DNA from: Candidatus Poribacteria bacterium
GTDB lineage: Bacteria; Poribacteria; WGA-4E; WGA-3G
Assembly (NCBI GenBank): GCA_026702755.1
Contig: JAPPBX010000017.1
Coordinates: forward strand, 13,743 to 77,742
Reading direction: 5' to 3'
DNA length: 64,000 bases
Position 1 is the first letter of the stretch, and the number at the start of each line of letters is the position of its first letter. The notes under the pieces were generated by a model. It ran no database searches and was not told the origin of the DNA. It saw only the letters and a list, made by a program, of their open reading frames with translations. The translations under genes and the position numbers were made by a program. Of this stretch, positions 12,604-36,896 are shown piece after piece.

Positions 12604-12610
12604 GAACTTT

Positions 12611-12639: not shown

Positions 12640-12731
12640 TTTTCCAATTGATGTGGTGGTACGCGGTTAAGCGTATTTTCACTGGTTCCGAGACCTTTTT
12701 ATTTTCTCTAACCTGTCAAAAGGAGTTTATC

Positions 12732-13526
12732 ATGAAAAGGGTTCTTGTGATTTTCGCGGTGATTGGGATACTCATCAGTTTTGCACCGTGTAGTAAAGCC
12801 AATCCGCCGGATGGATTAGTGCTACATCTGAGTTTCGATAAAAATAGCATTCAAGGCGATACCGCAAAAGATCTGTCTGAGGAAGGCAATGATGGGATCA
12901 TTAACGGTAACGCAACGATGGTCGCGGGAAAGCATGGCGACGCATTGGAGTTTGATGGCAAGGATGACTTTGTTGAAGTACCACTGGAAGATTCGATTAC
13001 CTTTTCCACTGGCGATTCACTAACAGTCCAAGTGTGGGTAAAAACAGACGATGAGCCACCAAAGAACGATGGGATTGTCGGAAACTATCGTCCGGGTACT
13101 GATGCGGTTTGGATACTCTCTGTCAGCGGCGATAACCCAGCGACTCGTGGCAAAATGGCTTTTAGTGTCCGGGACAAGGGACGTGCCAATAGTGCTGGGA
13201 TAACTTCTCCGGACTTCCTGAACGATGACAAATGGCATGTCCTTGCTGGTGTCCGAGACCAGAAAGCAAAAAAGATCAGATTCTACATAGACGGTAAGTT
13301 GATTGATGAAGTTGATGACAATACAAAGGACATCAACAGCGGGCAGTCAATTTGGGTAGGAGAGCATCTGAACCGGTATTACAAGGGACTCATTGATGAA
13401 GTGAAAGTGTGGAACCGTCCATTGACCGCCGCGGAACTTGAGCAATCAGGCCAACAACCGTCTGCTGTTGGTGCCTCCGGAAAGTTGACGACTGTATGGA
13501 GTGCGCTCAAAACAGCACACCGGTAG
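12732..13526 (+). CDS. Secreted LamG_3 / concanavalin A-like protein (paralog 2)
   Basis: AAGGAG RBS then ATG. Signal peptide MKRVLVIFAVIGILISFAPCSKA. LamG_3 motifs (GLVLHLSFD, LTVQVWV, C-terminal LIDEVKVWNRPLTAAELEQ). C-terminal tail GKLTTVWSALKTAHR. Confidence 0.7.
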   Translation: MKRVLVIFAVIGILISFAPCSKANPPDGLVLHLSFDKNSIQGDTAKDLSEEGNDGIINGNATMVAGKHGDALEFDGKDDFVEVPLEDSITFSTGDSLTVQVWVKTDDEPPKNDGIVGNYRPGTDAVWILSVSGDNPATRGKMAFSVRDKGRANSAGITSPDFLNDDKWHVLAGVRDQKAKKIRFYIDGKLIDEVDDNTKDINSGQSIWVGEHLNRYYKGLIDEVKVWNRPLTAAELEQSGQQPSAVGASGKLTTVWSALKTAHR

Positions 13527-14743: not shown

Positions 14744-16083
14744 GCTTCAAATCCTTCAGTCAATTCAGACCGGTCGAGGTTGCGCCCGATGAAGATAAGG
14801 CTATTGTAGCGCGGTTCACCACCCCACGGGCGGTCGGGGCGACCGTCGAAGAGCATATGAACCCCTTGGAAGACGAATCGTTCTGGCTGCCCCTTGATGC
14901 TCAGAATACCTTTCATGCGGAAGATGTCGGGACCTTTTGTCCGAAGCAGGTTGCCAATCCAATCGTTCAGCCGGTCAGGGTCGAGGTCGCCGGGGGTTGT
15001 GATGCCGACCGATGTGACTTCGTCATCATGTTCGTGGTCCGGCTTAAATTCGCGTTCAACAACTGGCTTGACAAGGGTACCGCTGCCAAAGAGTTGTGCT
15101 TGAAATTCGTCGGGGTGATGCTCGGTAAACAGCGCGTAAGCACCGGGGCGGCCGATCTGCACGTCAAAGCGTAATTCGTCCGCCGTGAGATTCAATGCAA
15201 TGAGGTGTCCACCCGGTTGAAGGGTGCCACCCGCCGAAAGTTCATGCTCATCATCGGAGAAAACCATAACGACTGGCTCAACAGCGGACTCCAAAGCTTC
15301 ATCGGTTGACGCACTTACGGGCACCAACGCGACTTTCATCGCCGGGTCAGGACCTTCTTGGAGAACCAGTTCATGCGTGCCTGCCGAAAGGTCATAAACA
15401 CCAGCCCATTCAAACGGATACTCCGGTTCCATAAACTGTGGGTCAATCTCCATCGCCCGGTCCAGATCGAATCCACCGACATTGAGAATCTTGTCCATTT
15501 CAACCACGGCGTCTTTCGTTCGATAAATCTTCGCTGCAGCGTTCATGCTGCGAATTCTGGCTTCCAGTTGCTCTAACTCTCCCTCGGTCACAAGGTCAAT
15601 CTTGTTCAACAAAATGACATCGGCAAAGGCAATCTGTTCACGCGCCTCGTCGCTGTCATCGATGTGCTGCCAGATGTGTTTGGCATCAACCAGTGTCGTG
15701 ACGGAATCCAGTTGCAGTTTCTCCTGCATTTCGGTGTCCATAAAGAACGTCTGAGCAACTGGCCCGGGGTCCGCAAGTCCTGTGGTTTCGACCATGATGT
15801 AGTCAAACTTATCGCGACGCTTCATCAGATTCCCCAAAATACGGATGAGATCACCGCGCACCGTGCAGCAAATGCAACCATTGTTCATCTCGAAAATCTC
15901 TTCTTCGGCACCGATGACCAAATCATTATCGACACCGATCTCGCCAAACTCGTTTTCGATGACGGCGATACGTTTGCCATGGTTTTCGGTGAGAATGCGG
16001 TTGAGAAGCGTGGTTTTACCAGATCCCAAAAAGCCCGTCAACACGGTGACAGGAACTTGATTGTTTAGCATGGCTGTGTTCAT
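14731..16083 (-). CDS. COG0523-family (CobW/ZigA/YciC-like) metallochaperone GTPase
   Basis: Walker A VLTGFLGSGKTTLL. Metal-binding GCICCTVRGDL (CxCC) motif. ETTGLADPGPV switch region. C-terminal CobW_C-like region. AAGGAGAG RBS. Confidence 0.85.
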   Translation of the reverse strand: MNTAMLNNQVPVTVLTGFLGSGKTTLLNRILTENHGKRIAVIENEFGEIGVDNDLVIGAEEEIFEMNNGCICCTVRGDLIRILGNLMKRRDKFDYIMVETTGLADPGPVAQTFFMDTEMQEKLQLDSVTTLVDAKHIWQHIDDSDEAREQIAFADVILLNKIDLVTEGELEQLEARIRSMNAAAKIYRTKDAVVEMDKILNVGGFDLDRAMEIDPQFMEPEYPFEWAGVYDLSAGTHELVLQEGPDPAMKVALVPVSASTDEALESAVEPVVMVFSDDEHELSAGGTLQPGGHLIALNLTADELRFDVQIGRPGAYALFTEHHPDEFQAQLFGSGTLVKPVVEREFKPDHEHDDEVTSVGITTPGDLDPDRLNDWIGNLLRTKGPDIFRMKGILSIKGQPERFVFQGVHMLFDGRPDRPWGGEPRYNSLIFIGRNLDRSELTEGFEACLA

Positions 16084-16102
16084 CTTTCTCTCCTTGTAGA
16101 AT

Positions 16103-16363
16103 TTAGTCAGCGGTCAAGCTAACGATGTCCGTCTGATCCACCTCCGCCAGCGGTTTGTGAATCTTGTATTGCCGGGGCTTTCCCGGCGTCTCCATGATTG
16201 CAATGACCGTTTCAATAGGCGGGCAGCCCTCTTCGGTGCATTGCAACTGAGTAATCATCACAGAAATATCTTCTGATAGGTCAAAGACTTCGGAGACCCA
16301 CGATTTGACTTGGACGAGTTGCTGTGGGTCACTCTCTTTTTGCGAATTAAAAAAATTCAGCAC
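16103..16363 (-). CDS. Small hypothetical protein (86 aa) with a CTEEGC motif, first gene of the COG0523 operon
   Basis: The ORF sits 19 nt upstream of the COG0523 gene on the same strand. I recognise no family. Confidence 0.35.
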   Translation of the reverse strand: MLNFFNSQKESDPQQLVQVKSWVSEVFDLSEDISVMITQLQCTEEGCPPIETVIAIMETPGKPRQYKIHKPLAEVDQTDIVSLTAD

Positions 16364-16483
16364 TATTGTATGTCCTCCTTTAAACCGTCTGTCATCAGGC
16401 TCGTATCAATGTAGCAACGTTGTACGACAGGAACCTGCCTGGCGAACGCTTGCCACTGTGAAGCCTTGTAACTCACGGTTTGC

Positions 16484-16921
16484 TTATTTTTTCTCAAACC
16501 CGAACGAGGGTGATCGAAACCGATCAAAACGGTGACTATCAAAGGCTGAAGGCAACGGAAGTAGTGCATCTGCTCGTGCCACGGCTTCCGCCCAATCTAC
16601 GAGTCGCGCATAGTGTAGATGGAGATCTATCCGTCCTAACCACACGACACCGTGCGGTGAGGTGATACAGATGACATTTGCGAGATCGCACGGACCGAGA
16701 CAGCCTTCGCTGATTGTCAATGTTATTGAAGCCGACAGCCGCTTGTTCCGCCACTCCTTGATGAGCCACTCGACGGGGACAGGCGGTTTTCGTTTCTCTG
16801 TCACGCCACAACAACAACCCTTACAAACCAGTATATGCACTAAGACACGCCGCTTTGATGCGAGTTTGGGCGACGATTCGATTCTATTTGCTCTCATACC
16901 TTTTTCCTGCATACTGTTCAA
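16484..16921 (-). CDS. Thioredoxin-like [2Fe-2S] ferredoxin-fold protein (DUF1636-like), a family often adjacent to cobW/COG0523 genes
   Basis: Cys cluster VHILVCKGCCCG ... EGCLGPCDLANV. Size about 130-145 aa. The true start may be an internal Met. Confidence 0.5.
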   Translation of the reverse strand: MNSMQEKGMRANRIESSPKLASKRRVLVHILVCKGCCCGVTEKRKPPVPVEWLIKEWRNKRLSASITLTISEGCLGPCDLANVICITSPHGVVWLGRIDLHLHYARLVDWAEAVARADALLPLPSAFDSHRFDRFRSPSFGFEKK

Positions 16922-16975
16922 ATCTCCGCTTGGCGTTGCTGATGATATTCCTCTATTATCTGAACTTGATGTTTA

Positions 16976-17569
16976 TCAATCGCTTCCACGCTGTGAAGGC
17001 AAGTATTCGACGAGTTCATACCACTTTGCAGCCATCTCGTGTGCAGGAATAGGTTTCTTCTTCCATGCATCAGTACACCGTTGGCGATAGTCAAGTCCGT
17101 ATTCAGAAATAATCCACCGCTCGTAGTCGCCTATCCATGCGATACCTTGAGTGAGCAAGCTGAAAACGCGACGCCACGCTTCCACATCACATGGATGCGT
17201 AAGCTCAGGGAGTTGCTCCGGTTTCCATATAGGCAACGAAAAATCGACCGCTGCTGTCTGTTTGGGCGCGAATTTGTAACGCTGCAAGAAAAGCCCTCCT
17301 CGGCCCCCATCGCCATAGAAAAACCCGAATCCCCATAAAATAACTCGGCTTCTGCCAGAGTCACGCCACTCATAAGCGGTACTTCCGTGCTTGCCTTCCG
17401 GCGGTCGATGTTTGGTAAAACCGTAGGCGAGCAAAGCATTTTCCTCTGCCCGGCGAATATCCTGTCCCCAACACCACAACTGTTGGTCCAACAGCGTCGT
17501 CCCGATCTTCCTGACCTTGTTCAATGCACCTGACCAAAGCGCTGATTCGTCGTCAGTTCTGTCAGACAT
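16976..17569 (-). CDS. Hypothetical protein (197 aa)
   Basis: Long ORF with no recognisable motifs. It is co-oriented with the neighbouring zinc-related genes. Confidence 0.35.
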   Translation of the reverse strand: MSDRTDDESALWSGALNKVRKIGTTLLDQQLWCWGQDIRRAEENALLAYGFTKHRPPEGKHGSTAYEWRDSGRSRVILWGFGFFYGDGGRGGLFLQRYKFAPKQTAAVDFSLPIWKPEQLPELTHPCDVEAWRRVFSLLTQGIAWIGDYERWIISEYGLDYRQRCTDAWKKKPIPAHEMAAKWYELVEYLPSQRGSD

Positions 17570-17611
17570 GACTTATTCCCCCATAAGAAGCCGCTTCTAC
17601 CTCTTCTCAAG

Positions 17612-17800
17612 GTCACTAAGCAATTCAAAAGCGGTGTCAAGAACTGTCGGTTTCTTTGCACTATTTCTTAACATGAGCCACTTTTCCTCTGTGTTACACA
17701 CGATTCATCACTACCCTATGACATTCAAGGGTAGTGATGAATCTTATCGGCACTTATTTCAAAATAACCATCCGCTTCATCTGATGGAAAGACGGCGTGG
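17612..17800. repeat. Copy 1 of a ~180-bp conserved 3'-end element containing a 13-bp perfect inverted repeat (ttcatcactaccc ... gggtagtgatgaa)
   Basis: It is near-identical to 21817..21990 (aaggtcac[tg]aagcaattcaaaagcggtgtcaagaact.tcggtttctttgcactatttcttaacatgagcc ... ttcatcactaccc-loop-gggtagtgatgaatcttatcggcactta.ttcaaaataaccatccgctt). It overlaps the last codons of the 1078-aa gene. Confidence 0.6.
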
Positions 17801-20800
17801 ACAATCGGTAGAAATAAACACCACTTGAAACCCGCTCACCCACATCATTTCGACCATCCCAATAGGCAGCACGTGATCGACCTTGATAGAAACCCGCTGG
17901 CTTGAAGCCAAGCGAAAGCGTTCGCACCAATCGCCCTGTCGTATCGTAAATTGATAGCGTCACAGGGGCTGACTCCGAAAGGTGATAAGGTATCCACGTT
18001 TCCGGATTGAACGGGTTGGGATAATTCTGCAACACCAGGCTCTGCTTAGGTACGCCAATCCCCTTAAGTGTAATAGGAAGAACAGCGTTTGCAAGCGCCT
18101 CTGGTGTCACGACGAAACTCAGCTTCTCCGAAGCAATCTCTCCGGTTGCATCCGCAACGGTGACTTCCAGAGTGTCGCCAACCTGGACGACGCTCTGGTA
18201 GGAGAGATCGGCAGTCGCTGCGGCAAAGTAACCGTCTCGCACACGATTCGTCATAATAGCGTTCGTCCGCAGGTTTCGTACAGTGACCAGATAGCCTTCA
18301 AGGTTCTGCACACCTTCTAATTGCCCACTGACAACGAATGCCCAAGTACTACTTGGCGTGTCAATTGATCTTGCAATCGGTGCCGCAGGAACTTGCGGTT
18401 GATTTGTCCACGGTGCCCCGACAAAGGCAACCTGTCGGGCGTGCGGCACGTTGACGATGTATCCCTTTGCCCCTTCAATCGGGAATCCGTTGTCTGGTGC
18501 ATCCGGTGTCCAACCAACGAACTTTTGGTTGACATCATCAAGCTTAATTACCGTCGTTGCGCCAACCATCTCCGCCAGCGACCGAGCGTTCATCGGCGTG
18601 CGAGGCTTCAACGGTGAGGAGATCATGTTCAAGCCTTTGGAGAGAGAGGCGTAGTAGACCTGGCTGAAGTCATCTCCGTCTGTAGGCATTGGGGTGGCAA
18701 TGAAGCCGTGAGTCTGCTCTTCGCCGTCTTCCGAATGAATTTCAAACCAACCGACAATGACACCATCATCGTTAATGGCTTGTGCAACGGTGGTTTCTGC
18801 GCCGGGAATCCCGAATAGGTGAAACTCGCCCTCTGGAGTCCGTAGAAATCCCTGTACTTCAGAGAAATCAAGCGGCGCAGTGTGACCAACAATCCTGCCA
18901 TGATTGTCGATGTCATCGGGGAGCGTATGCCGCTCTGCGTTAATAGACAAAGTTGTGAACTCGCCATCCTCGTAAATTAGCCCATCAATAAACTCTGTTG
19001 GTGTAAATCCTGATTCAGGTAGATTCCAGCCCGCCATCACACCGGCGTTATTGATACCACGAAAAACATTGCCGCCAACACCGCCCGAAGAGGGAACTTG
19101 CCCGAAAGTCCCGTCCGGTTCGCGAAGAAAACTGGTGATGACGATGTCGTTTTCTGTTGGGAAATCGAAATGATACGAAGTGAGCTGACCGAGGTCGTTA
19201 ATGCCCCACCCGAAGTTATCGGCTGCACCCGGATTGACTGTGATAAACATACCGTCCGGTTCTCTCAGGAATCCGTGCTGCACGCCATCCGCGTCTTTAT
19301 ATCGACCCGTGATTTGGCCGGATGCATTGATTCCGAATGCCCGTGTGTCTGTTGCCCCTTCTGGAGCAATCGTCTCGAAGACACCATTTTTGAGCCAGAA
19401 TCCTTTCCGAACAGCGTTTGCATCCGCATAGCTCCCGACGATGTCTCCAGCGTTGTTGATACCGAAAAGCTCTGTCTCCGACGCACCTGCGAACGGTATA
19501 TCGACGACCTCAATATGATACGGTACACCTATTGTCAGGTGTATACCATCTGTGGAGAGGTCGGCGACAGACTCATGGCTGTGGTCAGCGTCATGTGATG
19601 GCGCAGGTCCCAGCGGTGCAACCCAATCCAAGGCTGTCATGTTCACTGGCTGCCCCTCGACAGAAAATGTCCTGCTGACTGATACTGTGTCAAGGTCAAC
19701 CTCAAGAATCTCACCGGTATTGGGATTGCTGACATAGGCGAACCCACTACCGACAGTCAGCGCGGGGCGGAGACCGTCCGCACCACTGAAATCTGCAACC
19801 ACTTGTGTCGATCCGAGCAACGTCCAATCGCTTGGGTTGAACACCTGTAACAGACCGTCAACGGTCAGCACTGCTAACCTATCTCCATGTTTCTTGTCAA
19901 AATCGAAACCTCTGTAGTCTGTTGGGAGTTGCTGAATGTCGTTCGGATCAAGCTCGGTCGAAGTGGGGTGGATACGGACGAGGGCTTTGTAGCCTGGATC
20001 CGGGCGGCTACCGTAATTGCCGATGGCAAACGGCTGGGCGTGATGAGACCTGACGATGCTCGTTCGCAGACCATCAGGATAAGCAATCTTGTGTGCGGAG
20101 AACAGACCGGTTACCGGGTCGTGGGTCATCACAAAAACGCCACCATCCCCCGTGCCATCCTCACGTTTCTCATTACAACCAGCTATGAAATGTTCACCGA
20201 CTATCGTTTCACCGTGCATACCGAGGCAGGATGCTTGGAAATCTTCCTTGTCGTTGAACGTTTGAACAATATTTCCGTGTTCATCAACTACCGCAAAGCC
20301 ACTCGGAAGTGATCCGAACTCACGGTCAGGATCCGGGAGCGAGAAAATTATCTTTCCACCGTGCACCGGTGCTCCAGCACCGTGCTGCGGCGCCGAGGTC
20401 AATATGAGCGTGTCCGGGTTGGGTAAGAACAGGTCTTCCTCGCGCACGGTGACGTTCTTTGAATCTACACCCTCACCAAAGTTGCCATCGAAGTGGATGT
20501 TAACGCGCCCATCGTGTGAAACAAAGTGAATGGGTCTTTGCGAGTTTGCGAGTTCGCCGGTCAGGTTGAACGGCAGCAAGCTCGGTCTGCCTTTCTCCTT
20601 ATCGAAATGATCGCCGTGTGCTTCGAGGTACAGACCGGAGTCGATGAAATTAACGCGATTGGCACCCGCTTGAACAGCGACTGCGATGCGCCCGCTTTCG
20701 GTCGTGTAAACACGTGCAGACCCTTCCACCATGAAGGTTTCTATCACTTCTCCATTGTCAAGTTCAATAAGTTGGAGTAAACCGGTTTCGCCATCTGCGA

Positions 20801-20927
20801 CAAGTAACCGACCCAGCGGCTCAGCATGCTCATCATCATACTCTTGTGCGATGGCTTGCATTGAGAGGATCGAACAAGACATCAAAAACATAAGCAGAGC
20901 CAGGGTGGCTCTCATGCAAGTAACCAT
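17754..20927 (-). CDS. Large secreted surface protein: N-terminal beta-propeller-like region (possibly AztD-like zinc chaperone fold), central HAF-family repeats, and a T9SS-type C-terminal sorting domain
   Basis: The ORF is open from 20990 (TTG). The likely start is the Met right after the conserved leader element (MVTCMRATLALLMFLMSCSILSMQAIA signal peptide). HAF-like repeats (FGINNAGDIVG, AFGINASGQITG, GWGINDLGQLT, FRGINNAGVMAG, AQAINDDGVIVG). C-terminal VLQNYPNPFNPETWIPYHL...VTLSIYDTTGRLVRTL...WDGRNDVGERVSSGVYFYRL is typical of TIGR04183/FlgD-Ig-like CTDs. Confidence 0.7.
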   Translation of the reverse strand: MVTCMRATLALLMFLMSCSILSMQAIAQEYDDEHAEPLGRLLVADGETGLLQLIELDNGEVIETFMVEGSARVYTTESGRIAVAVQAGANRVNFIDSGLYLEAHGDHFDKEKGRPSLLPFNLTGELANSQRPIHFVSHDGRVNIHFDGNFGEGVDSKNVTVREEDLFLPNPDTLILTSAPQHGAGAPVHGGKIIFSLPDPDREFGSLPSGFAVVDEHGNIVQTFNDKEDFQASCLGMHGETIVGEHFIAGCNEKREDGTGDGGVFVMTHDPVTGLFSAHKIAYPDGLRTSIVRSHHAQPFAIGNYGSRPDPGYKALVRIHPTSTELDPNDIQQLPTDYRGFDFDKKHGDRLAVLTVDGLLQVFNPSDWTLLGSTQVVADFSGADGLRPALTVGSGFAYVSNPNTGEILEVDLDTVSVSRTFSVEGQPVNMTALDWVAPLGPAPSHDADHSHESVADLSTDGIHLTIGVPYHIEVVDIPFAGASETELFGINNAGDIVGSYADANAVRKGFWLKNGVFETIAPEGATDTRAFGINASGQITGRYKDADGVQHGFLREPDGMFITVNPGAADNFGWGINDLGQLTSYHFDFPTENDIVITSFLREPDGTFGQVPSSGGVGGNVFRGINNAGVMAGWNLPESGFTPTEFIDGLIYEDGEFTTLSINAERHTLPDDIDNHGRIVGHTAPLDFSEVQGFLRTPEGEFHLFGIPGAETTVAQAINDDGVIVGWFEIHSEDGEEQTHGFIATPMPTDGDDFSQVYYASLSKGLNMISSPLKPRTPMNARSLAEMVGATTVIKLDDVNQKFVGWTPDAPDNGFPIEGAKGYIVNVPHARQVAFVGAPWTNQPQVPAAPIARSIDTPSSTWAFVVSGQLEGVQNLEGYLVTVRNLRTNAIMTNRVRDGYFAAATADLSYQSVVQVGDTLEVTVADATGEIASEKLSFVVTPEALANAVLPITLKGIGVPKQSLVLQNYPNPFNPETWIPYHLSESAPVTLSIYDTTGRLVRTLSLGFKPAGFYQGRSRAAYWDGRNDVGERVSSGVYFYRLSTPSFHQMKRMVILK

Positions 20928-21000
20928 AAATCGTGAAATAGCGACAGAAAAGTCGCGCTGAAAAAAATACGTAAACAATGTATTCTCCAATTTTTTTATC
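20928..21000 (-). promoter_or_regulatory. Conserved 5'-UTR element (copy A) that abuts the start codon and contains the GCGAC-N6-GTCGC stem-loop
   Basis: mRNA sense is aaaaaaattggagaataca.tgtttac.tatttttttc.g.gcgacttttctgtcgctatttc.cgatt.ATG. It is shared almost base-for-base with 26254..26330. Confidence 0.55.
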
Positions 21001-21335
21001 TAATTAGGGCTTACGCAGATCGCTCTTTTGTAGCATAAACTCTCTAACGAAGCGTCATAGACTCAAAATTGCGTAAGTCCTGCTAAATGAAATTACACTT
21101 AACGGCGAACATGCCACGCGAAACATATAAAACGCGTGTTGACATGTAGCCAGTAACGGATGCTTTGCGTAATAGATGTGCTTATGGACATCCCGAAAGC
21201 CGACCACGCATGGGTCCACAATCAGATAGCGTCTACTACAGAGCAAAGCAGCGGTGTACAAAGCGCGGGGCGCGTCATAGGTAACCCCGCGATCTTCGTA
21301 CAATCAAGGATATAAAGGAAAAACAAAATCTGCCT

Positions 21336-21707
21336 TTAAAAGGCATAATTTGCGAGTTCAGTGGAGAATACAGGTGGGGCACGACTTCGGGTGTGGATGA
21401 CCAGTTTTAGAGGGATAGAAGTGTCTTCATAAAGTCGGAGTTCAGTATGAAAAAAGAAAGGTGCGTTGAGAGCAAAAGGTTCAACCTCGAAACTGACGTG
21501 CTGGCTGCAAAAGAAGCAGGCTGCACAGGTATTCTCGCGCTGCGAGTGTTCGCTAGGGCAATGCTGGCAATGCGAATGTTCGCTATGATCGTGTGTCAGT
21601 TCGATGAGACCCAGCAGCGCGACGTAGCAACATAAACCTGCTAAAACACAGATTTTCAAACTACGCCTAAATATTAACTTGTTGGGAAAAGTCGTACCGT
21701 TTCTCAT
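21336..21707 (-). CDS. Small membrane-anchored His/Cys-rich protein (copy A)
   Basis: MRNGTTFPNKLIFRRSLKICVLAGLCCYVALLGLIELTHDHSEHSHCQHCPSEHSQRENTCAACFFCSQHV. There is a paralog at 26873..27220 with many synonymous codon differences over the first ~50 codons (GGT/GGC, CCC/CCA, TGC/TGT, TAC/TAT, CAC/CAT), which argues for a real coding gene under purifying selection. A consensus promoter lies 45-50 nt upstream. Confidence 0.6.
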   Translation of the reverse strand: MRNGTTFPNKLIFRRSLKICVLAGLCCYVALLGLIELTHDHSEHSHCQHCPSEHSQRENTCAACFFCSQHVSFEVEPFALNAPFFFHTELRLYEDTSIPLKLVIHTRSRAPPVFSTELANYAF

Positions 21708-21783
21708 ACACCAGAACCTATGGTTATGATTAAAAAAAATGAATGCGAATAAACTTGACGTAAATTATAGCACGCGATTGTGT

Positions 21784-21812
21784 CAATGTCAAATAGAACT
21801 TAAAAAGTTGAT
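21784..21812 (-). promoter_or_regulatory. Perfect-consensus sigma-70 promoter (TTGACA-17-TATAAT) reading toward the small His/Cys ORF and leader A
   Basis: The minus strand reads tTTGACAttgacacaatcgcgtgcTATAATtta. The -35 hexamer is duplicated in tandem (TTGACATTGACA). Confidence 0.6.
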
Positions 21813-21816
21813 AAGG

Positions 21817-21990
21817 TCACGAAGCAATTCAAAAGCGGTGTCAAGAACTCTCGGTTTCTTTGCACTATTTCTTAACATGAGCCGTTACACTCCTGCGAAT
21901 ATACAGATTCATCACTACCCAATGACCTTCAAGGGTAGTGATGAATCTTATCGGCACTTACTTCAAAATAACCATCCGCTTGAACGGTTT
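21817..21990. repeat. Copy 2 of the ~180-bp conserved 3'-end element with a 13-bp hairpin (ttcatcactaccc aatgaccttca agggtagtgatgaa)
   Basis: See 17612..17800. It lies immediately 3' of the ZnuA-like gene (minus strand) and its last bases overlap that gene's stop. Confidence 0.6.
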
Positions 21991-22954
21991 ATAACTCCGA
22001 TTTCCCAATCAAAGCATGGACAATCGTATCAATATTATGTCGGATCATCCCGATGTAGGTACCTTCAGGAGTTCCCTCGTTTCCCATAGCATCTGTGAAG
22101 AGCACACCACCGATCTTCACATCAAATCCTTTTGACTTCACAGCGGCTTTCACGGCTTCGAGACTCCGTGGAGAGACGGATGACTCTACAAAAATAGCAG
22201 AGATACGCCGGTCCGCAATAAACGTCGCCAATTCCTGTACATCAGCGATACCGACTTCTGTCGCAGTGCTAACACCTTGTAATCCGCGCACCTCAAACCC
22301 GTACCCCTTTCCGAAGTAGTTAAAACAGTCGTGCGCCGTCACAAGGACGCGTTGCTGAGATGGCACGCGTTCCACTTGCGACTTTACGTATGCGTCGAGT
22401 TCCATGAGTTTCGTGAGGTAGCGTTCAGCATTGCTTCGGTATAGGACAGTATTATCCGGATCGAATTCACTCAGGGCATCGCGAACCTTTCCCGCCGCTA
22501 GCATCCAAAGTTTCACGTCAAACCATAGGTGCGGATCGTAGAGTCCCTCGTATTCTGCGGGTGTTAGCAGTAGACTCCGATCTACGGCATCTGTTACGGC
22601 GACCGTCAGCGTGTCCTCCGACATCTTCGCAAGGATGTCCACCATTTTTGCTTCAAGGTGCAGCCCGTTATAGAAGATGATGTGTGCTGAACTCAGTTTT
22701 TGAACATCTTTAGGTGTCAGGTTGTAAAAGTGTGGGTCTACGCCAGGTTCCACTATCCCGGTCACCTCAACGCGCGTACCGCCAACATTTTTAACAATAT
22801 CAGTAATCATACCGATCGTGGCAACAACGCGAAGTTTGTCGCCTGTGGCAGCACCCGGTTGTCCCTTCGGATCACAGCCAGCCCATACCAATATACCTAT
22901 CAAACACACTGAAATGTATATTCTCTGCATAATTTTATGCATTTTCTGCCTCAC
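21989..22954 (-). CDS. znuA: Periplasmic metal (Zn/Mn)-binding lipoprotein of an ABC uptake system, ZnuA/TroA family
   Basis: Lipoprotein signal (...LIGILVWAGC). TroA-fold signatures (LRVVATIGMITDIVKNVGG, VDPHFYNLTPKDV, DPHLWFDV, VTAHDCFNYFGKGYGFE). No znuB or znuC gene is adjacent. Confidence 0.75.
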   Translation of the reverse strand: MRQKMHKIMQRIYISVCLIGILVWAGCDPKGQPGAATGDKLRVVATIGMITDIVKNVGGTRVEVTGIVEPGVDPHFYNLTPKDVQKLSSAHIIFYNGLHLEAKMVDILAKMSEDTLTVAVTDAVDRSLLLTPAEYEGLYDPHLWFDVKLWMLAAGKVRDALSEFDPDNTVLYRSNAERYLTKLMELDAYVKSQVERVPSQQRVLVTAHDCFNYFGKGYGFEVRGLQGVSTATEVGIADVQELATFIADRRISAIFVESSVSPRSLEAVKAAVKSKGFDVKIGGVLFTDAMGNEGTPEGTYIGMIRHNIDTIVHALIGKSEL

Positions 22955-23408
22955 ATGTTAAACAGGTCTTACAGAGGTGCCGATTCACGAGATGCGCGGA
23001 GGCGATTAAAACGCCGCCGATACTGTAGAAGACCACTTCAAAAGTGCCTTCAACGGCTATCTGAGCGGTAGCGATGAATGCTAACGCCGCTATCAGTACC
23101 AAAAACGCTCGCCAGTTTCGGTGGCGTCGAACACCCCACGCTAAACTCCCGATTGCCAGTCCAATTGCGCTCGCAATAAGGATAAACTCAACACGCTCAT
23201 TCGCAAGGAAACTCAACCCAATCAAAGGTAAAACTGTTCCTAAAAGCGGCATCGCGAGGCAGTGGATCGCGCATGCGAAAGGGAGACACGCCGCGCACGC
23301 GACAGAGAGACACGCGCCAGTTGTATTCGCCAATTCGTGGTTAAAATATCTTTTCAATTTTATCTCCTTAGAAAATCGAGAACGGCGGGCGATGATAGAA
23401 ATCATCAT
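22935..23408 (-). CDS. MerC-family inner-membrane metal transport protein
   Basis: TM1 Cys motif GACLSVACAACLPFACAIHCLA (compare MerC GCAACFPALA). LIGLSFLANE. C-terminal CKTCLTCE. Four predicted TM helices. Confidence 0.55.
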   Translation of the reverse strand: MMISIIARRSRFSKEIKLKRYFNHELANTTGACLSVACAACLPFACAIHCLAMPLLGTVLPLIGLSFLANERVEFILIASAIGLAIGSLAWGVRRHRNWRAFLVLIAALAFIATAQIAVEGTFEVVFYSIGGVLIASAHLVNRHLCKTCLTCEAENA

Positions 23409-23423
23409 CCCCGTCCTACAATT

Positions 23424-25703
23424 TTAAAAATTAAGTTTATACAAGAGTTTCGCATTCCGTCCTGGTTCCGGCATCGCCGATTTGATGCGGGACAGATGTT
23501 CGCGATACGTTGTATCAAAGAGGTTTTCAATCTCGAAAACGACCATGTTCTCAAGCTGCCACCACGAAAAATTGAGATAGCTCCCGATATCATAGACGAG
23601 ATAGCCGTCTGTCGGTTCCTCAAATTCACCGAGTCGGGTCTGGCTGCCTGAAAAACGGGACGCGACATACAAATGCAACGGGGCAGGCGTGTAACTGATG
23701 ACGAATTTACCGTTGAGGGGTGGGACACGCTCCAGCGGTCGCCCATTGCTTTGAATCGTTCCGTTGACGTAACTCATATTGAGCTGAAGATGGACTTGCG
23801 GCAGGACCTCACTCCCTATTTGGATTTCAGCCCCATCCATCACAACGTCGTGTCCCATGTATTGATAAATCCACAACCATCCTGCTGCGCCGCTGCCCCA
23901 CTCTTTTTCACCGCTGTTCATCGGAACGAGATAGTTCTGTATCTGATTCCTGAAAAGCGCAAGATTGAGTCTGAATCTGTCGTCTGCGTATTTGACGAAG
24001 AGTTCAGTGCCGTATCCGTTTTCGGGTCCCAGTTCTGAATTGCCGATTTCGTAGGAATAGACAGCCAAGTGCGGACCATCGCTGAAAAGCTCCTCGATCC
24101 CCGGTGCGCGAAACGTTTTCATCAGGGTAGCCCCGGTACTTAGCCTATCCGTCCAATGATAAATTCCAGAGGCAGCCCCTGAGAAACCGTTGAAATCGCG
24201 GCGTTGGACGGCTCCGGCTCGGACAACTGCCCCAGGTCTAAACGGTTCCGAACGTCTAATGTCGTAGCGGATAGCCCCTTGTAAGGTGAGTTTGTCGAAG
24301 TTACGCTGGTTTAGATAAAATCCCGCCAACGCGAGCTCACGGGTGTGAGGAGTCCAGTAAAATCCGTCTGTGGCGTGGTCTCGGTATTCCCACGAAACAC
24401 CTGCAATCGCGTTGTCTAATAGATGCGCCATCGCTGAGACGTTGTAGGTTAACAGACCGAATTCGACACCAAGTCTCCCGTTGGATTCCCATTCCTGATG
24501 CTGATAACGCGTATAGGCAGTCTGGAGTTTTACCTTTTCAAGTATTGCTGTATTGAAGCGGTACTCCATCTGTCCTTCATAACGTTGCTTGTCGAGTTCG
24601 ATGTTGACCCCGCTAATATGTCCTTCTGGTGAGCCGGGAACGCCGTAATCTGAACGATAACTGCTTCCCGAGGCACCGATGAAACCCCACGGCTTAATCA
24701 GCGAAGCACCGCCTGAAAAATTAACATTTGAAAGGGCAGTGTTTTTGAGTACACCTACCGGCGTTTGTATGTCAGATGCAAGCCGCCGATTCCATTCTAT
24801 ATTTCCCGCAAAATCACCAATTGGGAACGTAAAACCTGTCGTTCCGGTCAAACCTGAGTTGACAGATTCACCTTGGAACGTTAGATGCATATCCAGCCGT
24901 CTCGGTAGAATTTGCGGTATGTGATTGCTTTTGACATTGATGACACCGCCCAACGTACTTGAGCCGTAAATGAGCGATGCGGGACCCCGCGTAATTTCAA
25001 CACCTTCAGCGATCGTCGGATCAATCGATACGGCATGGTCGGCACTGGATGCCGATTTATCGCCCGTTCGCTCGCCGTTTTCGAGAATAAGCAGCCTGTC
25101 ACCGCCCAATCCACGAATAACGGGACGCGCAATCGCCCGTCCCATCGTTCGTTGTGAAATGCCCGTCTCATCTGCCAATGTGTTCGCCAAGGTCATCCCT
25201 AACCGTCTTTGGAGTTCCGCTTCACCCAATGCTAAGTCGGTTGTTTCCTCAAACTGTGAAAGAGAGCGATTTGAACCGTATACCCTGATGGTTTGCAGTT
25301 GAAACGGCAACGTCTCCAGTTCAATTTTGAGATAAGGCGTGGAGGCATTGACATCAATTACCTGTTCAAACCGCTGATAACCGACCTTCAGAAACTGGAG
25401 CGTCTGTTGTCCTTCCGGCACTGCGTCAAATTTAAACCGACCGTTTGCATCGGTCCGGACGCTTCCCTCAAGTCCCGCAATCTGGACTCTCACTCCACCA
25501 AGTCGAGCATGCGTCCGTACTTCCGTAACTTCTCCTTCCAAGGATCGCATTGGGTTCTGTGCACTTTGGGAATCCCTGAGATAGCAAAATAGGCATACTA
25601 TTATCCCAGACACCAACACGAGTAGGTAGGGACGCTTTCTAAGAATCCCTACCGTGGGAGATCTATGCGGACAGGCACAAGTGCTTGAACAAGTGCTTAA
25701 CAT
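23424..25703 (-). CDS. TonB-dependent outer-membrane receptor with an N-terminal carboxypeptidase-regulatory-like domain (ZnuD-like role inferred from context)
   Basis: CarbopepD_reg-like segment (GEVTEVRTHARLGGVRVQIAGLEGSVRTDANGRFKFDAVPEGQQTL). Plug (ITRGPASLIYGSSTLGGVINV). Long beta-barrel. C-terminal aromatic residue (...LLYKLNF). Confidence 0.8.
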   Translation of the reverse strand: MLSTCSSTCACPHRSPTVGILRKRPYLLVLVSGIIVCLFCYLRDSQSAQNPMRSLEGEVTEVRTHARLGGVRVQIAGLEGSVRTDANGRFKFDAVPEGQQTLQFLKVGYQRFEQVIDVNASTPYLKIELETLPFQLQTIRVYGSNRSLSQFEETTDLALGEAELQRRLGMTLANTLADETGISQRTMGRAIARPVIRGLGGDRLLILENGERTGDKSASSADHAVSIDPTIAEGVEITRGPASLIYGSSTLGGVINVKSNHIPQILPRRLDMHLTFQGESVNSGLTGTTGFTFPIGDFAGNIEWNRRLASDIQTPVGVLKNTALSNVNFSGGASLIKPWGFIGASGSSYRSDYGVPGSPEGHISGVNIELDKQRYEGQMEYRFNTAILEKVKLQTAYTRYQHQEWESNGRLGVEFGLLTYNVSAMAHLLDNAIAGVSWEYRDHATDGFYWTPHTRELALAGFYLNQRNFDKLTLQGAIRYDIRRSEPFRPGAVVRAGAVQRRDFNGFSGAASGIYHWTDRLSTGATLMKTFRAPGIEELFSDGPHLAVYSYEIGNSELGPENGYGTELFVKYADDRFRLNLALFRNQIQNYLVPMNSGEKEWGSGAAGWLWIYQYMGHDVVMDGAEIQIGSEVLPQVHLQLNMSYVNGTIQSNGRPLERVPPLNGKFVISYTPAPLHLYVASRFSGSQTRLGEFEEPTDGYLVYDIGSYLNFSWWQLENMVVFEIENLFDTTYREHLSRIKSAMPEPGRNAKLLYKLNF

Positions 25704-27459: not shown

Positions 27460-28662
27460 ATGCTAAGTGTTAAAGAAGCCCGCCAACAAATGCTAAATAC
27501 CATTCCGGTTTTACCCACAGAAAAACGGGAAATTCTAAGTTGTGCGAACTACGTTCTCGCTGAGACACTGCATGCCGAAGAAAACATTCCGCCGTTCGAC
27601 AATTCAGCGATGGATGGGTATGCGGTTCACGCAGCAGATGTTCAAAACGCTTCCGAAGCGAAACCTGCTGTTCTTTCGGTTGTAGAAACCATAGCCGCCG
27701 GATATGCCCCAACACAACAGGTCGCAGCCGGGCAAGCGTCGCGCATCATGACAGGTGCCATGATGCCGGAAGGTGCCGACGCGGTTGTGATGCAAGAGGT
27801 GACCCAGCGGGACGGGGATACAGTCAAAATTTTTGAGAGTATTGACAAAACTGGAAACGTCCGTTTCACGGGTGAAAGTGTCGCGGAGGGACAGCAGGTC
27901 ATGGGAAAAGGGAAATACCTACGTCCACCGGAAATTTCAATGCTCGCCTCTCTTAATCGCCCAGAGGTTACAGTCTATCGCAAGCCCACCGTTGCGATTG
28001 TTTCGACGGGTGACGAACTCCTGCTACTCGGTGACCGGCTTGAACCAGGAAAAATTCGAGAAAGCAACCGTTACGGTCTCTATGCACAGGTCGAGGAAGC
28101 GGGCGGCATACCGATTGATATGGGTATCGCGCCTGACGATGAAGCAGAAATAGAGCGAATTTTTCGGGACGCGCTTGCAAAGGCTGATGCCCTCATTACA
28201 AGTGGTGGCGTTTCGGTAGGGGAGCACGACTTTGTGAAAAGTGTATTGGAGAGATTAGGCGAAGTTAACTTCTGGCGCGTCGCCATGAAACCCGGAAAAC
28301 CGCAGGCTTACGGTATCTCGGACGGAAAACCTATTTTTGGATTGCCCGGCAATCCGGTCTCTTCGCTCGTTGTGTTTGAACTTTTTGTCCGACCCGCGCT
28401 CCTCAAAATGGCAGGACGTACAGAATTATTGCGTCCAACCTTCAAAGCTACTTTGGCAGAATCCATTACCAATAGAGATGGACGCGTTAATTATATGCGC
28501 GCAATTCTCAAAGAGTCTGATGGTCAATATACTGCTGAAACAACGGGTCCCCAGGGTTCTGGTATTTTGCACTCGCTTGTATTGGCGAACGGCTTAATCA
28601 CGATTCCATCCGGTGTAACGTTACAGGCTGGAGAAACGGTCGATGCCCAGTTCCTATTTTAG
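27460..28662 (+). CDS. moeA: Molybdopterin molybdotransferase MoeA
   Basis: MoeA motifs: NIPPFDNSAMDGYAV, ITSGGVSVGEHDF, FGLPGNPVSSLVVFELFVRPAL. AAAGGAGA RBS. Confidence 0.85.
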   Translation: MLSVKEARQQMLNTIPVLPTEKREILSCANYVLAETLHAEENIPPFDNSAMDGYAVHAADVQNASEAKPAVLSVVETIAAGYAPTQQVAAGQASRIMTGAMMPEGADAVVMQEVTQRDGDTVKIFESIDKTGNVRFTGESVAEGQQVMGKGKYLRPPEISMLASLNRPEVTVYRKPTVAIVSTGDELLLLGDRLEPGKIRESNRYGLYAQVEEAGGIPIDMGIAPDDEAEIERIFRDALAKADALITSGGVSVGEHDFVKSVLERLGEVNFWRVAMKPGKPQAYGISDGKPIFGLPGNPVSSLVVFELFVRPALLKMAGRTELLRPTFKATLAESITNRDGRVNYMRAILKESDGQYTAETTGPQGSGILHSLVLANGLITIPSGVTLQAGETVDAQFLF

Positions 28663-30579: not shown

Positions 30580-31416
30580 CTAAGCTTCCGGAATTTCGAC
30601 CGGCAGATCCAGCCGGTCACCCCACTCTTTCCACGAACCTATGTAGTTGCTTACTTTTGGATAGCCCAAGAGTCGCAACGCCAAATAGGCTTGTGAAGAG
30701 CGGTAACCACCCTGTCAGTAGCACATGACCTGTTTTTCCGGTGTGATACCGACATTTTCGTACATCTGCCGGAGTTCGTCAGCCGGTTTAAAAGCCCCTG
30801 CTTCATCGAGATTATTGAGCCACTCAATATGGATCGAACCCGGAATCGCACCTGGGCGTTCGGCGCGAGCGACCCTGCCGTAGTGTTCATCATCTGTGCG
30901 CGTATCGAGAGGAACAAAATCAGTTCGGTTTAAGAGGACGCGGATCACATCAGCATCCATGTGTATATCGTGTTTTGGATTTATTGGGAAGGGTGGCACC
31001 TCTGGTGGCTCAACACCGACCGTACTCACAGGTCCATCTGCTGCTAACCACGCCTTGAAGCCGCCATCCAATAGACGGGTTTCAGGGTGTCCTAAGTACT
31101 CGCAGAACCAAAACCCTCGCGAGGCGCGCGTTCCTGAGATGTCTTCATACCATACAATCGGCTTGCTCGGATCGAGTCCGCGTTGCTGAAATAGGTATGC
31201 TATCATCCACATAAAGGTATCGAAAGTCTCTTTTCGAGTATCAATAAGACTCAACCCAAACAAATCTAAATGAAGTGCACCAGGGATGTGTCCTTGGATA
31301 TATTCATAGGTTGGTCGGGTATCGACAAGGCAGTACGTCTGATCGTCAAGTGTGCCTTTCAATTCCTCAGCAGAGATAACCAGTTGTGGATTTTCATAAC
31401 CTTTATAGGTTTCCAT
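30580..31416 (-). CDS. Two-domain rhodanese-like sulfurtransferase with an in-frame TGA (30715-30717) at the catalytic-cysteine position: candidate selenocysteine-containing rhodanese
   Basis: ORF 30715..31416 ends ...[13 protein letters not shown]. The same frame continues [47 protein letters not shown] (stop 30580-30582; 837 nt total, divisible by 3). In the alignment y-C-q-s-G-g-R-S-a-q-a / [11 protein letters not shown] the TGA takes the place of the CX5R catalytic Cys. The N-terminal domain has [22 protein letters not shown]. Confidence 0.6.
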
Positions 31417-31567
31417 CTTTAGTTATAACTCCTTTAGGACTTACGCAATTTTCTTACGAACAACGGCTACCACACGCCGCTGGCGAGGTTTTAAACCTCG
31501 CCAGCGATGAAGCTGCGCAAGTCCTGTCCTTCTAATTTTTTATAAGACGCGTCGTCCTGTCTGCGTC

Positions 31568-33164: not shown

Positions 33165-33953
33165 ATGAAGAATGCAGTATTGACTTACAAGTTCTCCCCT
33201 TACGGGGTCGTGTGTTTCTTGGTAGCGTTGTCTATGATCCTCGCGCCGTTTGTTTCGGCTAACTTTGAAGAGGGACTTGTCCTGAATCACCATTACGATG
33301 AGGGGCAAGGCACACTTGCTGCAGATGCCAGCGGACATGGGCACGATGGCGAAATTTCCAATCCAGAGTGGGTCGATGGTAAATTCGGGAAGGCACTCAG
33401 ATTTGGTGGTGAAGGCAGCGACGTTTTCGTTACCGTTGAGAGTACGGCTGCCTTGAATGTAAACGAGTGTACGTTTATGGCGTGGATTAACGCCGATCAT
33501 TGGAATGGGGTACGCCAAATTGTTGGCAAATCCGTCCACGGTGGTTGCGCCGGTAGAACGCAATACGGCCTGTTTAGTGAAGGTGGTGTTTTCAAAGTCC
33601 GCTTTGAAACTGAAAACGGCAGAGCCGACATTTCAACGGATCTTCCACCAACCGGTGAATGGGTTCACGTCGCTTTTACCAACGATGGTGCAATGGCGAA
33701 AATCTATATTAATGGCAGCTCAGTTGTTGAAGGCGCGGTCCCGGGTCCACTGAGAGCGAACGACGATCCCTGGCGGATCGGACAGGACTGTGAACGTCTC
33801 AACTACGTCTTCGCAGGTGCTATAGACGAAGTTCGTCTCTGGAACCGTGCGTTGACGACTGCTGATATTGGTGAGTTAATGCCTTCAGCCGTTGCTGTTG
33901 ACGCTCGCGGAAAATTGGCGACCACTTGGGGCAGTATCAAAACTGCTCATTAA
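33165..33953 (+). CDS. Secreted LamG_3 / concanavalin A-like protein (paralog 3)
   Basis: Signal peptide. GLVLNHHYDEG, CTFMAWIN, NDDPWRIGQDCERLNYVFAGAIDEVRLWNRALTTADIGELM. C-terminal tail GKLATTWGSIKTAH. About 75% identical to paralog 4. Confidence 0.75.
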   Translation: MKNAVLTYKFSPYGVVCFLVALSMILAPFVSANFEEGLVLNHHYDEGQGTLAADASGHGHDGEISNPEWVDGKFGKALRFGGEGSDVFVTVESTAALNVNECTFMAWINADHWNGVRQIVGKSVHGGCAGRTQYGLFSEGGVFKVRFETENGRADISTDLPPTGEWVHVAFTNDGAMAKIYINGSSVVEGAVPGPLRANDDPWRIGQDCERLNYVFAGAIDEVRLWNRALTTADIGELMPSAVAVDARGKLATTWGSIKTAH

Positions 33954-36119: not shown

Positions 36120-36896
36120 ATGAAATTGGCTATTTGTTTATCTATCGCCTTGCTTTTGATGGTGACACCCTTCGCTATGTCTATTGGTCCAGGAGAATTT
36201 CTGGACGGTTTAGTGCTATACCATCCCTATGATGAAGGGAAAGGGGCCAAAGCCGAAGATTTTAGCGAAAATGAACACGAGGGTGTAATTGACAACCCGA
36301 AGTGGGTTAACGGAAAATTCGGAAAGGCATTGGAATTTGGTGGTCCAGGCAGCGACGTTTTTGTCACAGTTGAGAGCACTCCAAAACTGAACGTGGATGA
36401 ATTCTCGTTTATGGCGTGGATCAACTCCGAGGAATGGAATGGTGTCCGTCAAATCGTCGGCAAATCCGTTCATGGTGGATGCGGCGGTAGGGTCCAATAC
36501 GGCGTGTTCAGTGAAGGAGGGGTCTTCAAAATCCGTCTCGAAACCGAATCGGGGCGCGCCGATATTGCAACCGATCTACCTGAGACTGGGGAATTTGTGC
36601 ATATCGCTTTCACCAACGATACCAAGAAAACCAAAATCTACTATGATGGCAAAGAGGTACAGGAGGGAGATACGCCCGGGAAACTCAAAGCCAACGATGA
36701 TCCCTGGCGGGTTGGACAGGATTGCGACCGTCTCCAGTATGTTTTTGCAGGGATTATTGACGAAGTTCGTCTCTGGAATCGCGCATTGAGCGAGGAGGAA
36801 ATCAATACGTTTATGGATCAGGGCGTAGAGGCACTCGCGGTTGAAGCAACTGGGAAACTCTCCACAACCTGGAGCCGTCTTAAAGCAGGACTTTAA
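36120..36896 (+). CDS. Secreted LamG_3 / concanavalin A-like protein (paralog 4)
   Basis: Signal peptide MKLAICLSIALLLMVTPFAMS. GLVLYHPYDEG. NDDPWRVGQDCDRLQYVFAGIIDEVRLWNRALSEEEI. C-terminal tail GKLSTTWSRLKAGL. Confidence 0.75.
   Translation: MKLAICLSIALLLMVTPFAMSIGPGEFLDGLVLYHPYDEGKGAKAEDFSENEHEGVIDNPKWVNGKFGKALEFGGPGSDVFVTVESTPKLNVDEFSFMAWINSEEWNGVRQIVGKSVHGGCGGRVQYGVFSEGGVFKIRLETESGRADIATDLPETGEFVHIAFTNDTKKTKIYYDGKEVQEGDTPGKLKANDDPWRVGQDCDRLQYVFAGIIDEVRLWNRALSEEEINTFMDQGVEALAVEATGKLSTTWSRLKAGL

Follow-up and report, generated by a model that had tools for sequence, protein, structure and literature searches.

An in-frame UGA at the catalytic position of a poribacterial tandem-domain rhodanese: a predicted selenoprotein with a candidate discontinuous recoding signal

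The gene and its reading frame

The stretch of DNA analysed here (the window) comprises 64,000 nucleotides (nt) from a Candidatus Poribacteria bacterium (assembly GCA_026702755.1, contig JAPPBX010000017.1, positions 13,743 to 77,742), and its minus strand carries a rhodanese gene in which an in-frame UGA codon occupies the position of the catalytic cysteine. The gene starts with an ATG at 31416..31414 and runs as an open reading frame (ORF) of 233 codons, the last residues being KQVMCY, to a TGA at 30717..30715. The same frame continues past the TGA for 44 codons up to a TAG at 30582..30580. An earlier reading of the window, made from the letters and ORFs only (the sequence-only reading), had described the 233-residue ORF and its end with correct coordinates. 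It had also recognised the open frame beyond the TGA, although its count of 45 codons includes the stop. The read-through product contains two rhodanese stretches (PF00581, E=1.6e-36, Pfam), and its best match among solved structures is RhdA of Azotobacter vinelandii (1e0c, E=1.7e-39, residues 11-275 of the product). The features of the gene are:

30580..31416, minus strand: whole coding sequence with the UGA read through, 277 residues and a stop; tandem-domain rhodanese with selenocysteine (Sec) predicted at residue 234
30715..30717, minus strand: in-frame UGA, the predicted Sec codon, opposite the catalytic cysteine of CQGGYRS (homologs) and HCQTHHRS (RhdA); TGA in 81/81 orthologs
30697..30717, minus strand: active-site loop U-Q-G-G-Y-R-S, with Cys232 just ahead (C-Y-U), from the homolog and RhdA alignments
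31042..31374, minus strand: N-terminal rhodanese domain, residues 15-125, from the best Pfam stretch and the RhdA alignment; loop without catalytic cysteine
30613..30939, minus strand: C-terminal catalytic rhodanese domain, about residues 160-268 (approximate boundaries), from the second Pfam stretch and the RhdA alignment; the UGA lies inside it
30580..30582, minus strand: stop codon TAG, the true end of the frame, from the sequence and the ortholog frames
31429..31434, minus strand: Shine-Dalgarno-like AAGGAG, 12 nt 5' of the ATG, read directly from the sequence

Conservation of the UGA codon

Orthologs were found at 80 loci in 79 assemblies among the species-representative genomes of GTDB; by their titles, 77 belong to Poribacteria and three to an 'uncultured bacterium'. 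Together with the window this gives 81 sequences, all of which have TGA at the recoding codon, with no TAA, TAG or sense codon among them, and in all of which the frame stays open for the next 44-52 codons. The 43 codons after the UGA vary mainly at third positions, with a synonymous diversity (pS) of 0.407, a nonsynonymous diversity (pN) of 0.0255 and a pN/pS of 0.063. The low ratio and the third-position variation show that this segment is translated, and that it is under purifying selection.

In a search of protein sequences, about 100 clusters matched at 63-99% identity, every one ending at residue 231-234; those with a source name are mostly from Candidatus Poribacteria. The more distant homologs, at 56-60% identity, reach full length (274-299 residues). 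The peptide encoded after the TGA closely matches the C-termini of these full-length proteins, and the TGA column falls on the cysteine of their CQGGYRS motif. Because TGA also closes eight other long ORFs of the window as an ordinary stop, UGA is not reassigned genome-wide and the code is standard.

A scan of metagenomes added 64 cysteine-type loci (61 distinct sequences in the tests below) and 13 divergent homologs of the TGA type. In a neighbour-joining tree the Sec and Cys forms are interleaved, while the sampled Poribacteria clade is uniformly Sec. The two forms can be close to each other: the Sec-type locus L087 is 84% identical to the Cys-type L084, and the Sec-type L102 is 86% identical to the Cys-type L089.

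The sequence-only reading had placed the TGA on the catalytic cysteine, which agrees with the alignment to the homologs (CQGGYRS) and to RhdA (HCQTHHRS). Its view of the codon as a case of Sec recoding and not a lesion is upheld by the invariant TGA, the pN/pS of 0.063, the cysteine in the homologs and the interleaved tree. It had named stops or frameshifts scattered over related genomes as the mark of a pseudogene, and none were found at the 80 loci; its concern that the TGA might be a sequencing error is removed by the agreement of 80 loci from 79 assemblies. The core claim, an in-frame UGA at the catalytic cysteine of a rhodanese that is decoded as selenocysteine, is thus strongly supported by the comparison of sequences.

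Protein family

RhdA (PDB 1e0c, 1h4k and 1h4m) is a tandem-domain thiosulfate sulfurtransferase with the same domain order as the window protein. The alignment to 1e0c shows the RhdA-type arrangement of an inactive N-terminal domain, whose loop lacks a cysteine, followed by a catalytic C-terminal domain. The active-site sequence HCQTHHRS of RhdA stands opposite YUQGGYRS in the same loop frame, with six residues after the nucleophile ending in Arg-Ser. The cysteine aligned with the UGA, Cys230, is the catalytic residue of RhdA. The two proteins differ in the nucleophile, which is cysteine in RhdA and predicted to be Sec in the window protein, in the loop (QTHH and QGGY, respectively), and in an additional cysteine two residues before the Sec that RhdA does not have. 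The product would accordingly be, as far as homology can tell, a Sec-containing RhdA-type thiosulfate/persulfide sulfurtransferase of 277 residues.

A Sec-containing 'rhodanese-related sulfurtransferase' of the COG2897 type was predicted from Sargasso Sea data in 2005 (PMC1088965), and a 2026 review lists the COG2897-type Sec rhodanese as 'form 4' with the motif UxxG (PMC13188914). This type shares with the window protein the PF00581 domains, the two-domain SseA-type arrangement and the Sec at the position of the catalytic cysteine. The two PF00581 stretches and the full-length alignment to two-domain structures place the window protein in the SseA/COG2897 arrangement, and its U-Q-G-G agrees with the UxxG of the review, so that the enzyme class is already known. 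The catalogued exemplar of 'form 4' is MCY3690685.1; a Poribacteria ortholog has an accession close to it (MCY3742294.1), which is no more than suggestive of orthology. The sequence-only reading had called it a rare selenoprotein family; rare it is, but it has been catalogued since 2005. The literature searched neither links the COG2897 Sec family to Poribacteria nor describes its selenocysteine insertion sequence (SECIS).

Existing protein models do not capture the gene. The best NCBIfam match is the SseA/3-MST model (NF008557, a 3-mercaptopyruvate sulfurtransferase equivalog), at 98.5 bits against a cutoff of 250, which leaves the product outside that family. It is likewise no member of NF041203 (rhodanese_LYCAU, a single-domain selenoprotein of form 3, COG0607; 31.7 against 115 bits) or of TsoB (22.5 against 805). 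The single-domain rhodanese selenoproteins (forms 1-3) and TsoB have the rhodanese fold, a Sec in or near the active-site loop and a C-x-U arrangement in common with the window protein, but they are of single-domain or fusion architecture, unlike this tandem-domain protein. NCBI records of the orthologs examined (for example MDE0684969.1, MCE2401197.1, MCY3742294.1 and MYF98953.1) are 232-244 residues long and end at the UGA, lacking the catalytic residue and at least the last 44 residues. They are named 'rhodanese-like domain-containing protein', 'sulfurtransferase' or 'hypothetical protein'. This truncated and generic annotation arises because no NCBIfam model reaches its cutoff for this form of selenoprotein.

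The cysteine two residues before the Sec (C-Y-U, codons -2 and -1 at window 30718-30723) is invariant in all 81 sequences of the Poribacteria clade, and its position is taken by Pro, Ala, Ser or Thr in the other Sec and Cys lineages. Cys232 may be a resolving cysteine that forms a selenenylsulfide with the Sec.

RNA structure downstream of the UGA codon

The RNA 3' of the UGA is predicted to fold into an extended architecture that occupies most of the remaining coding region. With the U of the UGA counted as nt 1, its parts on the minus strand are:

nt 1-3, 30717..30715, minus strand: UGA, the recoding codon
nt 4-14, 30714..30704, minus strand: spacer of 11 nt, unpaired in the predicted folds
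nt 15-96, 30703..30622, minus strand: 82-nt domain, a long irregular hairpin closed by the 8-bp basal helix
nt 15-22 with nt 89-96, minus strand: long-range basal helix of 8 bp, CCGCUCUU (30703..30696) with AAGAGUGG (30629..30622)
nt 39-72, 30679..30646, minus strand: hairpin 3, the variable tip of the 82-nt domain (GUUGC.ACU.UUGG-GCUAU-CCAA.AGU..GCAAC)
nt 97-99, 30621..30619, minus strand: linker of 3 nt in the predicted folds
nt 100-120, 30618..30598, minus strand: hairpin 4, the proposed SelB-binding SECIS hairpin (GACCGGC-UGGAUCU-GCCGGUC), with G108 and G109 at 30610 and 30609
about nt 26-42 after the UGA, 30676..30694, minus strand: hairpin cacAAGCCuauuuGGCgUUGcg (AAGCC-UAUUU-GGCgUU) singled out in the sequence-only reading, unsupported as a SECIS

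The full region of the window gene folds at -50.8 kcal/mol (z=-4.01), and none of 200 shuffled sequences was as stable. Folded one sequence at a time, the window gene and genes of independent Sec lineages arrive at the same architecture. RNAalifold detected both the basal helix and hairpin 4 in 91 Sec sequences and the full architecture in the 12 divergent ones, whereas the 61 Cys sequences, which encode a nearly identical peptide, gave no structure. All eight pairs of the basal helix can form in 99% of the Poribacteria Sec genes and 83% of the other Sec genes but in only 2% of the Cys-type genes. Hairpin 4, scored as at least six of its seven pairs together with G108 and G109, is present in 79/79 Poribacteria Sec genes, 12/12 other Sec genes and 3/61 Cys genes. 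Its stem has 7-8 bp throughout the Sec genes, with a loop of UGGAUYU or GGAUU and an energy of -10 to -15 kcal/mol.

Both helices covary. Pair 18-93 of the basal helix is CG, UA or UG in Sec genes and a C·A mismatch in 33 of the 61 Cys genes, and pair 21-90 alternates between UA and CG among Sec genes. The changes at these two pairs are all at third codon positions, as are most of the varying positions of the two helices. In hairpin 4, compensatory changes are seen at pair 102-118 (CG and UA) and pair 103-117 (CG and AU), and all Sec genes (91/91) have the loop residue G108, which is the synonymous third base of a CUG or CAG codon. When 39 Sec sequences were tested for covariation, 99.3% of the cells were paired against 38-54% in slid registers, 26 cells had double changes against 5.1 expected, and the covariation score was 0.166 against 0.085; neither 26 nor 0.166 was reached in any of 500 shuffles.

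Raw minimum free energies (MFE) of Sec and Cys genes cannot be compared informatively because the GC content differs, and the excess of structure was therefore scored as z against synonymous-codon randomisation. Hairpin 4 (nt 99-120) has a z of -2.08 in Poribacteria Sec genes and -2.27 in other Sec genes compared with -0.33 in Cys genes. Hairpin 3 (nt 36-75) is also Sec-specific, with a z of -2.25 to -2.4 in Poribacteria, about -1.6 in other Sec genes and 0 to -0.13 in Cys genes. The sequence of its stem differs among lineages and its register is lineage-specific. RNAalifold found no structure in the 45-nt alignment of hairpin 3, probably because two registers coexist. The Sec-type L087 lacks the hairpin 3 tip and retains the basal helix and hairpin 4.

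Of the 84 hairpins of the hairpin 4 type found in the Poribacteria DNA, 81 are the rhodanese one, and elsewhere in the window the motif gave chance-level matches only. A permissive Rfam scan of the recoding region returned only a chance twister-P5 match (E=2.4), and a promoter and terminator scan around the gene gave nothing above chance.

Two hairpins nearer to the UGA were considered as SECIS elements and rejected. The bulged stem with a UAUUU loop that the sequence-only reading had put forward, with reservation, does exist in the sequence. It shows no Sec-specific excess of structure (z of -0.42 and -0.68 in the two Sec sets against -0.31 in Cys genes), no compensatory pairs and no G in loop positions 1-2 as the published model requires. 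The 82-nt domain is a competing fold, and the MFE structure of the full region does not contain this hairpin. Hairpin 1, directly 3' of the UGA, is strong but is found in Cys-type genes as well and so results from the coding of QGGYRS as such; this hairpin and the basal helix also compete with each other.

The Cys-type L089, 86% identical to the Sec-type L102, has kept the basal helix and the stem of hairpin 4 and has lost G108 through a synonymous change from CUG to CUC. From their sequences, the rhodanese genes of L089, L087 and L102 look like snapshots of switching between Sec and Cys.

Selenocysteine machinery

No tRNA was found by a tRNA scan of the window, which also has no Rfam match at the gathering threshold over its whole length. 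Domains of SelA, SelB and SelD are absent from the 40 scanned ORFs of its 45. The sequence-only reading had stated that the window is without selA, selB, selD and tRNA-Sec, and this is what these scans give. The tRNA scan detected no tRNA-Sec in the flanks of the 80 loci, and approximate sequences of E. coli SelD and SelA, used as tblastn queries, gave no match in the window and 1.8 Mb of loci.

Published data on Poribacteria supply some of the evidence. In Table S4 of Slaby et al. 2017, 'Ca_Poribacteria_WGA3G' has two SelA, one SelB and one SelD COGs (PMC5649159), and the WGA-3G genome is one of the ortholog-carrying loci (L038, ASZN01000084.1), with its rhodanese in the TGA form. Hydrogenases of group 4 that are of the Sec type have been reported from Poribacteria in a survey of 2026 (PMC13582414). 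This evidence from the literature is good but indirect, and for the genome of the window itself the machinery is the weakest part of the case.

At two loci the Sec-type rhodanese gene lies directly downstream of a seryl-tRNA synthetase gene on the same strand, at a distance of 46 nt (L081:4644-5954) and 166 nt (L082:4542-5834). These are the two most divergent orthologs of the Poribacteria type (63-64% identity). Seryl-tRNA synthetase also charges tRNA-Sec with serine.

Gene neighbourhood

The rhodanese gene of the window follows a MATE transporter gene with a gap of 151 bp. The gap contains a perfect 13-bp inverted repeat, CGCTGGCGAGGTT-taa-AACCTCGCCAGCG (window 31478-31506), which has no T-run after it and was not called by the terminator scan. 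The neighbouring genes suggest no operon partner for the rhodanese; they encode CobW, ZnuA, a MerC-like protein, a TonB-dependent receptor, MoeA, an amidohydrolase, an alpha/beta hydrolase, the MATE transporter and LamG-domain proteins. A metal-uptake neighbourhood occupies 13688-25703 on the minus strand and includes a WD40 protein, a CobW/zinc-chaperone-like GTPase (14731-16083), ZnuA (21989-22954), a MerC-like membrane protein (22935-23408) and a TonB-dependent receptor (23424-25703). MoeA (27460-28662) is encoded on the strand opposite to the metal-uptake genes. Five genes for small Laminin_G_3 (LamG) proteins stand beside or among four ABC-2 permease genes (1870-13526, 33165-33953 and 36120-36896). 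A protein of 1031 residues in which an ECF sigma factor is fused to BNR/Sortilin-type repeats is encoded at 5352-8447.

Beside the Cys-type rhodanese of L083 there are three adjoining short ORFs of 40, 40 and 173 residues (L083:10303-11116), one of which has weak Redoxin/AhpC-TSA matches. Judging by the sequence, this trio may be a peroxiredoxin-like gene split by in-frame stops and thereby another selenoprotein.

Discussion

The UGA of this rhodanese stands where homologs have the catalytic cysteine, it is conserved throughout the Poribacteria sampled, and the frame behind it is translated. We infer that Sec is inserted at the UGA. The residue so placed, Sec234, would form a Se-S (or Se-Se) adduct with the sulfane sulfur, or selenium, that the enzyme would transfer, with Cys232 as a possible resolving partner in the C-Y-U arrangement.

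The signal for this insertion would lie within the remaining 44 codons and consist of the 11-nt spacer, the helix-closed 82-nt domain, the 3-nt linker and hairpin 4 with its GG loop. Hairpin 4 resembles the canonical bacterial SECIS (E. coli fdhF and the bSECISearch consensus), which is also found inside the coding region 3' of the UGA, in its stem of 7-8 bp, its loop of 5-7 nt with two consecutive G residues and its energy of -10 to -15 kcal/mol. The 11-nt spacer after the UGA is the same as in E. coli. Unlike the canonical element, hairpin 4 begins 96 nt from the UGA, and the 82-nt domain is placed between spacer and hairpin. A long linear distance from the UGA is shared with the eukaryotic and archaeal SECIS of the 3' untranslated region, but the present element is located within the ORF, has the bacterial shape with a GG loop and has no kink-turn or GAA_A motif. 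Its approach to the UGA apparently depends on the folding of the RNA and not on an adaptor protein.

The published consensus describes a loop of 3-9 nt, an upper stem of 4-16 bp, a G in loop positions 1-2 and an MFE of at most -7.5 kcal/mol (PMC13188914, Fig. 2A). Hairpin 4 conforms to it in loop, stem, G and energy; its spacing falls within the 16-37 nt of the consensus only when the 82-nt domain is left uncounted (11+3+7 = 21 nt). The window gene has no consensus-compliant hairpin at 16-37 nt from the UGA. In the predicted structure, the 8-bp long-range helix (nt 15-22 with nt 89-96) would loop out the 82-nt domain, and the path from the UGA to G108 would shrink from 107 to about 22 nt (11+3+7+1). 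SelB might then bind hairpin 4 and reach the SECIS and the ribosomal A site at once. For comparison, the conserved loop G of known elements is about 20 nt from the UGA on a stem of 6-8 bp (PMC4605307), and the SelB-binding stem-loop of E. coli starts 11 nt from the UGA (PMC8659212). A reason for such a layout might be that the codons after the UGA encode the invariant active-site loop, a constraint that leaves little room for a conventional SECIS. The mRNA enters the ribosome some 8-12 nt 3' of the first base in the A site, so a helix beginning at nt 15 could stay folded with the UGA in the A site.

Several observations weigh against this interpretation. The linear spacing from the UGA to the loop of hairpin 4 is 103 nt, far above the 16-37 nt of the consensus, and in work on E. 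coli an altered spacing between UGA and SECIS abolishes decoding. The looping-out that would rescue the spacing is deduced from the geometry of a predicted fold. In its middle part the 82-nt domain covaries weakly and pairs in a register that depends on the lineage, and the features of hairpin 4 also occur in three of the 61 Cys genes. Kinship among the Poribacteria sequences means that they cannot be counted as independent cases, and the independent support comes from 12-13 divergent sequences of perhaps 6-7 lineages. Neither a sel gene nor a tRNA-Sec was found in the window or the 1.8 Mb of flanks by domain, tRNA and tblastn scans, and the case for the machinery is indirect, being a published COG table for one ortholog-carrying genome.

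Other explanations start from the same codon. If the UGA were a real stop, the gene would encode a truncated 233-residue protein or be a pseudogene or an assembly error, with the downstream frame kept for some other purpose. Gene callers and NCBI do annotate proteins of 232-244 residues, and a truncated product would still hold the N-terminal rhodanese domain; it would, however, lose the catalytic residue and the final 44 residues of the fold, and the segment behind the UGA has neither a start codon nor a ribosome-binding site for a separate C-terminal peptide. With a stop that is always TGA and never TAA or TAG at 80 loci in 79 assemblies, a frame open in 81/81 sequences, codon-phase variation and a pN/pS of 0.063, termination is effectively refuted. 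The conserved TGA, the purifying selection and the standard code together leave no room for a pseudogene, a sequencing error or a real truncation. SelB and a SECIS might instead recode the UGA with the non-canonical, tRNA-Cys-like tRNA-ReC (SelC*), which would insert cysteine, and the enzyme would then be an ordinary Cys rhodanese. Such tRNAs are present in about 13-17% of surveyed genomes, and Sec and Cys outcomes are inseparable by sequence analysis (PMC13582414). Nevertheless there is no evidence for tRNA-ReC in Poribacteria, and the SelA and SelD COGs of WGA-3G imply that Sec itself is made. Moreover, UGC and UGU are one base away and would spare the cost of a signal of about 120 nt, yet UGA is found at 80/80 loci; recoding as cysteine is therefore considered highly improbable.

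An unlikely but less remote alternative is that Sec is inserted with a signal that differs from the looped-out model. Hairpin 4 could be a truly distal SECIS that acts by flexible looping of the mRNA, hairpin 3 or another element could bind SelB, or the long-range helix could serve otherwise, for example in ribosome pausing or mRNA stability. Hairpin 3 is Sec-specific and agrees with the consensus in loop, stem and energy, at a spacing of 49 nt that is likewise beyond 16-37 nt, and for every helix the link to SelB is a prediction. Against hairpin 3 stands the Sec-type L087, which lacks its tip and keeps the basal helix and hairpin 4, and these two are the only elements that are near-universal in Sec genes and have clean compensatory changes. 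The explanation as a whole, a Sec sulfurtransferase with UGA-encoded Sec and a recoding signal of spacer, 82-nt domain and hairpin 4, is on balance very likely to be correct. That spacer, domain, linker and GG-loop hairpin form a functional SECIS of a distinct, discontinuous bacterial class is the more demanding claim, and on the predicted folds it is judged probable. No description of a looped-out or distal bacterial SECIS was found in the literature searched, which did not extend to subscription papers such as the original bSECISearch paper, and the architecture is apparently undescribed.

Conclusions

The enzyme itself is a re-discovery, as Sec-containing rhodanese-related sulfurtransferases have been catalogued since 2005. 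What is added is that the Sec form is fixed at all 80 sampled Poribacteria loci (79 assemblies). The databases keep a truncated 'rhodanese-like' or 'hypothetical' protein from which the catalytic residue is missing, and a complete and probably highly reactive carrier of sulfur or selenium is therefore miscounted when the functions of these sponge symbionts are inventoried. The close Cys relatives in which the stems are kept and the loop G is lost synonymously illustrate the gain and loss of Sec.

According to reviews, the consensus model does not fit every bacterial selenoprotein gene and there must be further classes of SECIS; the element described here is a concrete candidate for a non-textbook bacterial SECIS that is supported by covariation. 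If it is one, a discontinuous SECIS would account for some of the selenoprotein genes outside the 16-37 nt consensus, and SECIS-based searches would miss selenoproteins in which the codons close to the UGA are too constrained to form a hairpin.

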